Origin: Escherichia coli
GTDB lineage: Bacteria; Pseudomonadota; Gammaproteobacteria; Enterobacterales; Enterobacteriaceae
Assembly: GCF_003018115.1 (NCBI RefSeq)
Contig: NZ_CP027457.1
Strand: one strand, 5' to 3'
DNA: 64,000 bases
Shown piece after piece: positions 28,735 through 29,073 of the stretch. A program made the position numbers and the translations under genes. The stretch's first letter is position 1, and each line of letters opens with the position of its first letter. The notes below the pieces were generated by a model, which saw nothing but the letters and a program-made list of their open reading frames with translations, did no database searches and was not told the origin of the DNA.

Positions 28735-28895
28735 GATTTTTCCTCTTTCACATAGTGGGTTCCACAGCAAAGAGACGCGGAACCCTGGAGTTGTTTAGGT
28801 ATCCGGATGAACAACCAGACCGCAGCCGTGGCGTTGCATCGGATGAGATGGCGTATAAGTTCTACCTTTTGGTAAGACATGTCAACCCGAATTCT

Positions 28896-28915
28896 GAAAT
28901 TGGTTAACCACATCA
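28896..28915. promoter_or_regulatory. palindromic GntR-type operator upstream of uxuA (candidate UxuR/ExuR site)
   Basis: aaattggttaaccacat with a perfect 10-bp palindrome tggttaacca, about 165 bp upstream of the uxuA start. Confidence 0.5.
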
Positions 28916-29004
28916 CAAGAATTTCACTCTCCTGGTTGTTGCTGCAAATTGCAGCAAAAGGTAATCGATGGTTATTGATCATAGGATGTGACATTCATCG
29001 CAAC

Positions 29005-29020
29005 AATGGTTGACCAATTT
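29005..29020. promoter_or_regulatory. second palindromic GntR-type operator upstream of gntP (candidate UxuR site)
   Basis: aatggttgaccaattt near-palindrome about 55 bp upstream of the gntP start; gntP is known to belong to the UxuR regulon. Confidence 0.45.
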
Positions 29021-29073
29021 ACATAACATGTCGCCCAAAATAACAACGGTTCAACCAGGTAAGGTAAAACGTT

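Follow-up and report, generated by a model that had tools for sequence, protein, structure and literature searches.

The two palindromic sequences located in the intergenic region between uxuA and gntP are very probably UxuR operators of the divergent gntP-uxuAB control region of Escherichia coli. This region is already known to be controlled by UxuR, and both sites exhibit all of the defining features of a UxuR operator that can be examined in a DNA sequence. The region belongs to the UxuR regulon of the E. coli hexuronate (Ashwell) pathway, with which it shares the organism, the locus and the motif (TGGT-N2-ACCA with A/T-rich flanks) as well as the neighboring regulator gene, the inducers and the co-activation by CRP, while nothing substantive is different. 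According to papers citing the original work, UxuR operators have been described for uxuAB, uxuR, gntP and uidABC (Rodionov 2000; Bates Utz 2004; Suvorova 2011; Tutukina 2016). The finding is therefore correct but represents ordinary textbook regulation at sites that were described before; it confirms that a curated E. coli regulatory region can be recovered by reading the sequence alone, and adds nothing to the biology as it stands. The one point that is possibly new is the distance of 102-106 bp between paired operators in six lineages.

The uxuA-gntP spacer and its two operators

The window analyzed here, a stretch of 64,000 nucleotides, is part of the E. coli chromosome, as an 801-bp query around the finding matched 5404 of 5426 complete E. 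coli genomes with a best identity of 100%, and uxuA and gntP are annotated beneath this match in the E. coli genomes. Compared to K-12 the window is inverted. The genes of interest are arranged in the following order, after which fimH and the remaining fim genes are found.

25023-25796, minus strand: uxuR, 257 aa, FadR-subfamily GntR repressor with Pfam GntR and FCD domains
26009-27469, minus strand: uxuB, fructuronate reductase
27550-28734, minus strand: uxuA, mannonate dehydratase, first gene of uxuAB (TIGR00695, 791 bits)
29074-30417, plus strand: gntP, GntP-family permease (909 bits), annotated in K-12 as fructuronate transporter

The start codons of the divergent genes uxuA (ATG at 28734, minus strand) and gntP (ATG at 29074, plus strand) are separated by a 339-bp spacer (28735-29073), which has the same length in K-12 and was found at full length in 5403 genomes with 97-100% identity. 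No Rfam families were found between 28500 and 29300. The product of the linked uxuR gene reached 583 bits with the NCBIfam equivalog model of the Uxu operon regulator (cut-off 442) compared to 252 bits with the ExuR model, and LldR represents its closest paralogue family in NCBIfam after ExuR. The two sites in the spacer are the following.

28897-28914, unstranded: O_A, the uxuA-proximal probable UxuR operator, 18-mer AATTGGTTAACCACATCA with the core TGGTTAACCA at 28901-28910
29003-29020, unstranded: O_P, the gntP-proximal probable UxuR operator, 18-mer ACAATGGTTGACCAATTT with the core TGGTTGACCA at 29007-29016

An earlier note on this DNA had located the sequence tggttaacca at 28901-28910 and a second palindrome at 29005-29020. 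Both positions are exact: the former is a perfect 10-bp palindrome, and the latter reads aatggttgaccaattt and includes the O_P core. The description of both as near-perfect palindromes holds for the cores, with four of the five base pairs in the O_P core being symmetrical and the asymmetric pair being the central one; the flanks are symmetrical only in part. Both cores consist of a TKGT/ACMA palindrome with a 2-nt gap (TGGT-TA-ACCA at 28901-28910 and TGGT-TG-ACCA at 29007-29016), and at both sites the A/T-rich flanks fit the published operator consensus AAATTGGTATACCAATTT (PMC8092373), which is matched by O_A at 13 and by O_P at 14 of 18 positions. A literature search with the exact sequences of the two sites retrieved unrelated primers and, apart from these, only the PMC8092373 consensus. 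Based on the motif, its conservation and SELEX results at the level of the spacer, we infer that the two 18-mers are identical with the curated sites.

The core TGGTNNACCA was found four times in the 64-kb window compared to 1.07 +/- 0.93 times in shuffled sequences, with one of 100 shuffles reaching four. Three of these four copies are located in uxu spacers, two of them in the 339-bp uxuA-gntP spacer, where about 0.006 would be expected, and one between uxuB and uxuR (25954-25963). A looser 16-mer with up to three mismatches was not enriched in the window (13 found, 13.7 expected), and the operator signal therefore resides in the strict core. Scanning the window with a UxuR weight matrix that had been trained solely on sites from outside Escherichia resulted in four outliers with 19.9-23.7 bits, including O_A (23.7 bits) and O_P (19.9 bits), while the next best position reached 13.4 bits. 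When flanks and center were scored with the matrix from other genera, O_A ranked in the top 0.09% and O_P in the top 1.2% of the window positions.

Promoter elements and proposed regulation

The two operators had also been proposed to control uxuAB on one side and gntP on the other, and the conserved promoter elements agree with this placement: O_P falls within the core promoter of gntP, while O_A is found immediately upstream of the -35 hexamer of uxuA and does not overlap the core promoter. Since a generic scan for sigma-70 promoters and terminators between 28650 and 29150 came up empty, the promoters were deduced from cross-genus conservation; start sites for uxuA and gntP were not found in the supplements of genome-wide start-site studies. 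The elements of the two promoters are listed below.

28880-28885, minus strand: putative uxuA -35 hexamer TTGACA, invariant and 15 nt (16 nt once) from the operator core in seven genera
28857-28862, minus strand: putative uxuA -10 hexamer GAACTT, weak but keeping A-11 and T-7, 17 nt from the -35 hexamer
28902-28917, minus strand: CRP-like 16-mer TGTGATGTGGTTAACC, matching 8 of 10 consensus positions and overlapping O_A
28987-29002, plus strand: CRP site TGTGACATTCATCGCA, matching 9 of 10 consensus positions
29024-29029, plus strand: putative gntP -10 hexamer TAACAT, kept in Escherichia and Citrobacter

On the uxuA side these elements form a module in the order TGTGA (often present), 2-3 nt, operator, 15 nt, TTGACA, 17 nt, and GAAYTT or a similar hexamer, which was found in Escherichia, Citrobacter, Enterobacter sp. 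R1, Cedecea, Enterobacter sp. Ag1, Shimwellia, Klebsiella sp. BIGb0407 and Erwinia psidii. The -10 hexamer GAACTT matches the consensus at two of six positions, and the sequences found 17 nt after TTGAYA are GAAYTT, GATGTT or GAGATT, with GAGAAT occurring at 18 nt in Klebsiella sp. As judged from these conserved elements, transcription of uxuA would start at about position 28849 (the A of a conserved GCCAT) with a leader of approximately 115 nt, and the center of O_A would lie at about -56, 15 bp upstream of the -35 hexamer. A location upstream of the -35 hexamer is an unusual place for simple steric repression. Escherichia, Citrobacter, Enterobacter sp. R1, Cedecea, Providencia and Erwinia have TGTGA at 2-3 nt upstream of the operator (28913-28917 in the window), and the CRP-like 16-mer would be centered at about -60/-61 of the uxuA promoter, which corresponds to a class I CRP position. 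Matches to 8/10 positions of the CRP consensus are not significant by themselves, as 52 of them occur in the window; multiple CRP sites in the uxuA-gntP spacer were reported by SELEX (PMC3105977).

On the gntP side, the CRP site at 28987-29002 is one of only six matches of 9/10 in the window. It is confirmed by published CRP ChIP-seq in ETEC H10407, where the motif given for the gntP/uxuA peak, TGCGATGAATGTCACA, is its reverse complement (PMC4287617). Four bases lie between the CRP site and the O_P core, and TAACAT follows four bases after the O_P 18-mer. With TAACAT as the putative -10 hexamer, gntP transcription would start at about 29036-29037 with a leader of approximately 38 nt, the CRP site would occupy the class II position -41.5/-42.5, and the center of O_P would be located at about -25, between the CRP site and the -10 hexamer. 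The same geometry was used in a synthetic promoter with the operator consensus aaattggtataccaattt between the -35 and -10 hexamers, which was repressed by UxuR and relieved from repression by fructuronate (PMC8092373). In a genome that also carries uxuR, the two sites thus fall within the promoter regions of uxuA and gntP, at about -56 and -25 of the respective predicted promoters.

By combining the predicted start sites with the presumptive assignment of each operator to its promoter and a likely mode of repression at O_A, the following regulation may be proposed. Without inducer, a UxuR dimer would occupy O_P (29003-29020) between the class II CRP site and the gntP -10 hexamer, and this position would exclude RNA polymerase from the gntP promoter. 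A second UxuR dimer would bind to O_A (28897-28914), overlapping the conserved TGTGA half-site at the class I CRP position, and would block activation of the uxuA promoter by CRP or by the alpha subunit of the polymerase. With its consensus -35 and poor -10 hexamer this promoter would need CRP, and exclusion of either CRP or the alpha subunit by UxuR would repress it. Binding of fructuronate or glucuronate by the FCD domain would release UxuR, upon which cAMP-CRP would activate both the gntP and the uxuA promoter. According to genetic evidence, ExuR also contributes to the repression of uxuAB, either directly or as a heterodimer.

Several further features were observed in the transcribed leaders and between the promoters. 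A segment of about 78 nt of the uxuA 5' leader (approximately 28745-28825, minus strand) is present in Escherichia and absent from Citrobacter. The 116-nt uxuA leader is predicted to form two stable hairpins (-38.1 kcal/mol, z = -3.2) and has no match in Rfam, while a 14-codon open reading frame within the Escherichia-specific segment is frameshifted in E. albertii. This segment was also considered as a dispersed repeat, which was rejected as it is single-copy in E. coli. A perfect 9+1+9 palindrome, TTGCTGCAAATTGCAGCAA, is found at 28939-28957; it lies between the two divergent promoters and would consequently be transcribed from neither of them. Four palindromes of this type occur in the window compared to about one in shuffled sequences. 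The palindrome is invariant in seven E. coli, has one mismatch in E. albertii, and is degenerate in a divergent Escherichia and absent from Citrobacter, and for the latter two reasons it was rejected as a third regulator site of a conserved mechanism.

Conservation and spacing of the operator pair

For the comparison across genera, 80 uxuA loci were taken from species-representative genomes and gntP, uxuB and uxuR were mapped in each of them. The divergent gntP-uxuA arrangement was found in Escherichia and Citrobacter. When the spacers were aligned, four Citrobacter sequences showed the following identities to the window.

O_A core: 100%
O_P core: 93%
CRP site, 28987-29002: 91%
TTGACA hexamer, 28880-28885: 100%
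69 bp between the operators: 28%, which corresponds to the random level

Both operators are invariant in nine Escherichia sequences (seven E. coli, E. albertii and one divergent lineage), the polymorphisms among which are located in the inter-operator spacer and the uxuA leader. Moreover, the core TGGTNNACCA (TGGTYRACCA) was present upstream of uxuA in every sampled locus that carries a linked UxuR orthologue with at least 63% identity and has intergenic DNA at this position. Outside Escherichia and Citrobacter, these loci belong to Enterobacter sp. Ag1, Cedecea, Shimwellia, Erwinia and Providencia. Likewise, TGGTYRACCA precedes uxuA in Enterobacter sp. R1, but no uxuR was found there within the flanks examined. 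Operators at orthologous positions are thus kept in Escherichia, Citrobacter, Enterobacter spp., Cedecea, Shimwellia, Erwinia and Providencia, while divergent uxuB/uxuA-type loci have the GT-N3-AC site TTGGTATAACAA in place of TGGTYRACCA.

A similar distance between the operators recurs in several lineages. The centers of O_A and O_P are separated by 106 bp in Escherichia and by 104-105 bp in Citrobacter, even though the sequences in between share only 28% identity and cannot be aligned. Enterobacter sp. R1, Cedecea, Enterobacter sp. Ag1, Erwinia mallotivora and E. psidii likewise have an operator at about -56, with a partner operator downstream in the leader at about +47, at a distance of 102-105 bp and separated by unrelated leader sequences. 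A spacing of 102-106 bp consequently recurs in six lineages, while two lineages differ: in Providencia and Klebsiella sp. BIGb0407 the exact cores are 142-144 bp apart, and weaker sites are present at other distances. In Cedecea and Enterobacter sp. Ag1 no gene is divergent from uxuA, and the spacing in these two can therefore not be explained by a second promoter.

Classical paired-operator repression loops include those of lac, where O1 and O3 are 92 bp apart, and gal, with 113 bp between OE and OI. The operator pair described here would resemble them in its interplay with CRP and in an auxiliary operator located at about ten helical turns from the primary operator, whereas LacI and GalR belong to another family, LacI acting as a tetramer and GalR requiring HU; no oligomerization of the LacI/GalR style is known for UxuR. 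A distance of 104 bp corresponds to about 10 turns at 10.5 bp per turn but, as a point against looping, is off-phase at the helical repeat of approximately 11 bp that has been reported for DNA loops in vivo. A closer relative is LldR of lldPRD, a FadR-subfamily member for which Aguilera in 2008 is said to have described two operators flanking the promoter and to have proposed a loop. This system resembles the uxu pair in its two palindromic operators about 100-130 bp apart around one promoter; in contrast, the E. coli uxu pair straddles two divergent promoters, and looping by UxuR is hypothetical.

The recurrent distance of 102-106 bp despite unalignable spacers is a hint of cooperative binding or looping, and it is conceivable, albeit doubtful, that UxuR operators are paired about ten helical turns apart and are bridged or looped cooperatively by this dimeric FadR-type repressor. 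O_A and O_P would then act as a cooperative pair, in which the UxuR dimers touch each other, loop out the 106 bp and are both needed for tight repression of uxuAB, so that the gntP operator would also serve as an auxiliary operator for uxuAB. Besides the spacing in Escherichia and Citrobacter and its recurrence with a downstream partner, the location of O_A upstream of the -35 hexamer, where a lone repressor is usually weak, points in this direction. However, the distances of 142-144 bp in Providencia and Klebsiella sp. BIGb0407 do not fit, the sample comprises few independent lineages, and a constraint on length could stem from the promoter architecture. In addition, UxuR is described as a homodimer (PMC8092373), and a tetramer is not documented. 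If looping were true, it would explain repression from an operator upstream of the -35 hexamer, and a cooperative pairing at about 104 bp would provide a mechanistic reason for gntP and uxuAB sharing one control region and could inform the design of fructuronate/glucuronate biosensors based on UxuR.

Other observations concern the genes and sites adjoining the operator pair. In some Escherichia genomes gntP is missing, but the control region is still complete, with the operator, CRP site and leader on the gntP side (L005, 1435-3000; L086, E. coli EC23HZZ201). The control region of L005 is directly adjacent to nanM and a sialate esterase gene, which implies a loss of gntP and the fim cluster. 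In place of a GntP gene, Enterobacter sp. R1, Providencia, Klebsiella sp. BIGb0407 and Erwinia carry a gene for an MFS (ExuT-like) transporter divergent from uxuA (L012, L017, L019, L042, L046). Several lineages also have additional, weaker operator-like sites at a distance of 31-34 bp to a main operator.

UxuR, ExuR and further operator-like sites

The sites of the FadR subfamily are palindromes with TKGT/ACMA boxes, in which GT and AC are separated by 3 nt in most members including ExuR and by 2 nt in a few including UxuR (PMC4494728). In K-12, sites with the 2-nt distance are located upstream of uidR, uidA, uxuR, uxuA and gntP, and those with the 3-nt distance belong to uxaC/exuT, exuR and uxaB of the exu regulon. 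The assignment to the TGGT-n-ACCA class bound by FadR-subfamily GntR regulators, as made in the earlier note, is in agreement with the 2-nt GT-AC gap at both sites and with UxuR being the product of the linked gene. The comparison with known UxuR and ExuR sites that had been suggested there also resulted in the 2-nt spacing of UxuR and not the 3-nt spacing of ExuR, and SELEX places UxuR on this spacer. In these genomic SELEX experiments (SELEX-chip) with purified UxuR, the gntP/uxuA spacer was the single specific target in the genome, and binding was weakened by glucuronate (PMC5934670). Furthermore, the uxuAB promoter was found to be directly controlled by UxuR in lacZ fusions (PMC9369180), and deletion of uxuR derepresses uxuAB and gntP (PMC10016265; PMC9369180). 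The proposed membership of gntP in the UxuR regulon is accordingly supported by the literature: besides this derepression, gntP is listed as a member in papers that refer to Bates Utz 2004 (PMC5934670; PMC9369180; PMC10016265).

ExuR is a paralogous FadR-subfamily repressor, and its operators at uxaCA/exuT, uxaB and exuR are similar to the sites described here in their TKGT/ACMA boxes, their A/T-rich flanks and an overlapping regulon (uxuAB). The palindromes might therefore be mainly sites for ExuR or an ExuR-UxuR heterodimer, with UxuR homodimers playing a minor role and the region forming part of the galacturonate (exu) circuit. In favor of such a role, genetic studies found uxuAB to be repressed by the products of both exuR and uxuR and heterodimers have been proposed, according to references quoted in PMC5934670 and PMC9369180, and O_A reaches 10.7 bits on an ExuR-type (3-nt) matrix. 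This score, which ranks 12th in the window, is obtained solely via a shifted half-site, however, while O_P reaches just 4.0 bits and no convincing site was found with this matrix in the uxuA-gntP spacer. In contrast to the sites of the E. coli exu regulon, all of which have 3 nt between GT and AC, both sites have a gap of 2 nt. Moreover, UxuR alone bound the spacer in SELEX, and in other genera, too, the motif is found together with a linked uxuR gene. Given the 2-nt spacing in particular, ExuR is unlikely to be the main occupant of these sites, although it is genetically established that ExuR takes part at uxuAB, and the identification of O_A and O_P as UxuR operators is preferred.

Two sequences with the 3-nt spacing were observed nearby. 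The weak candidate CTTTTGGTAAGACATGTCA at 28866-28884, located between the uxuA -35 and -10 hexamers, scores 6.3 bits and shares GTAnGACAnGT with the K-12 uxaC/exuT site. Its TGT..TACCAAAAG part is invariant between Escherichia and Citrobacter, but nothing singles the candidate out because the whole core promoter is about 80% conserved. In the gntP leader at about +11 to +21, CGGTTCAACCA (29047-29057; TGGTTGAACCG on the reverse strand) represents a GT-N3-AC palindrome about 41 bp from O_P, whose counterpart is a perfect TGGTTGAACCA in two Citrobacter species and scores 11 bits on the UxuR matrix. It may represent a weak site of the ExuR type, or nothing more than a conserved part of the leader.

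Two further strong matches to the UxuR matrix are located outside of the uxuA-gntP spacer, the first of which is listed here.

25951-25966, unstranded: O_R, a third UxuR-type operator, AACTGGTCAACCAAAT, in the uxuB-uxuR spacer (20.6 bits)

O_R lies 162 bp upstream of the uxuR start codon and is consistent with an autoregulation of uxuR; autorepression of uxuR has been stated (PMC9369180). It also agrees with the second site in the SELEX work of Shimada 2018, and two UxuR sites within the operon region were noted in the SELEX paper (PMC5934670). A weaker site (8.2 bits) is found at 25969-25988, 20 bp from O_R. The second match, the operator-like TATTGGTTGACCATTT at 45941-45956 (core 45944-45953), equals the real operators in its score of 21.8 bits and is located inside a gene for a hypothetical protein of 678 aa in the leuX-adjacent island beyond the fim cluster, where it probably occurs by chance in AT-rich DNA. 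An equally good motif match inside an unrelated gene demonstrates that such a match alone is no proof of function. Although this match and the lacking enrichment of the relaxed 16-mer could be taken to mean that O_A and O_P themselves are chance matches, or sites of an unrelated protein without a role at uxu and gntP, chance is excluded for practical purposes by the combination of statistics (two exact cores in 339 bp, far above expectation), conservation (sites strictly kept across genera within otherwise unalignable DNA) and the binding of UxuR to the uxuA-gntP spacer in SELEX. Finally, a perfect palindrome, GAGCCTGCCAATGGCAGGCTC, is present at 30428-30448, right after the gntP stop codon and between the convergent genes gntP and fimH, where it probably forms the stem of a bidirectional terminator.
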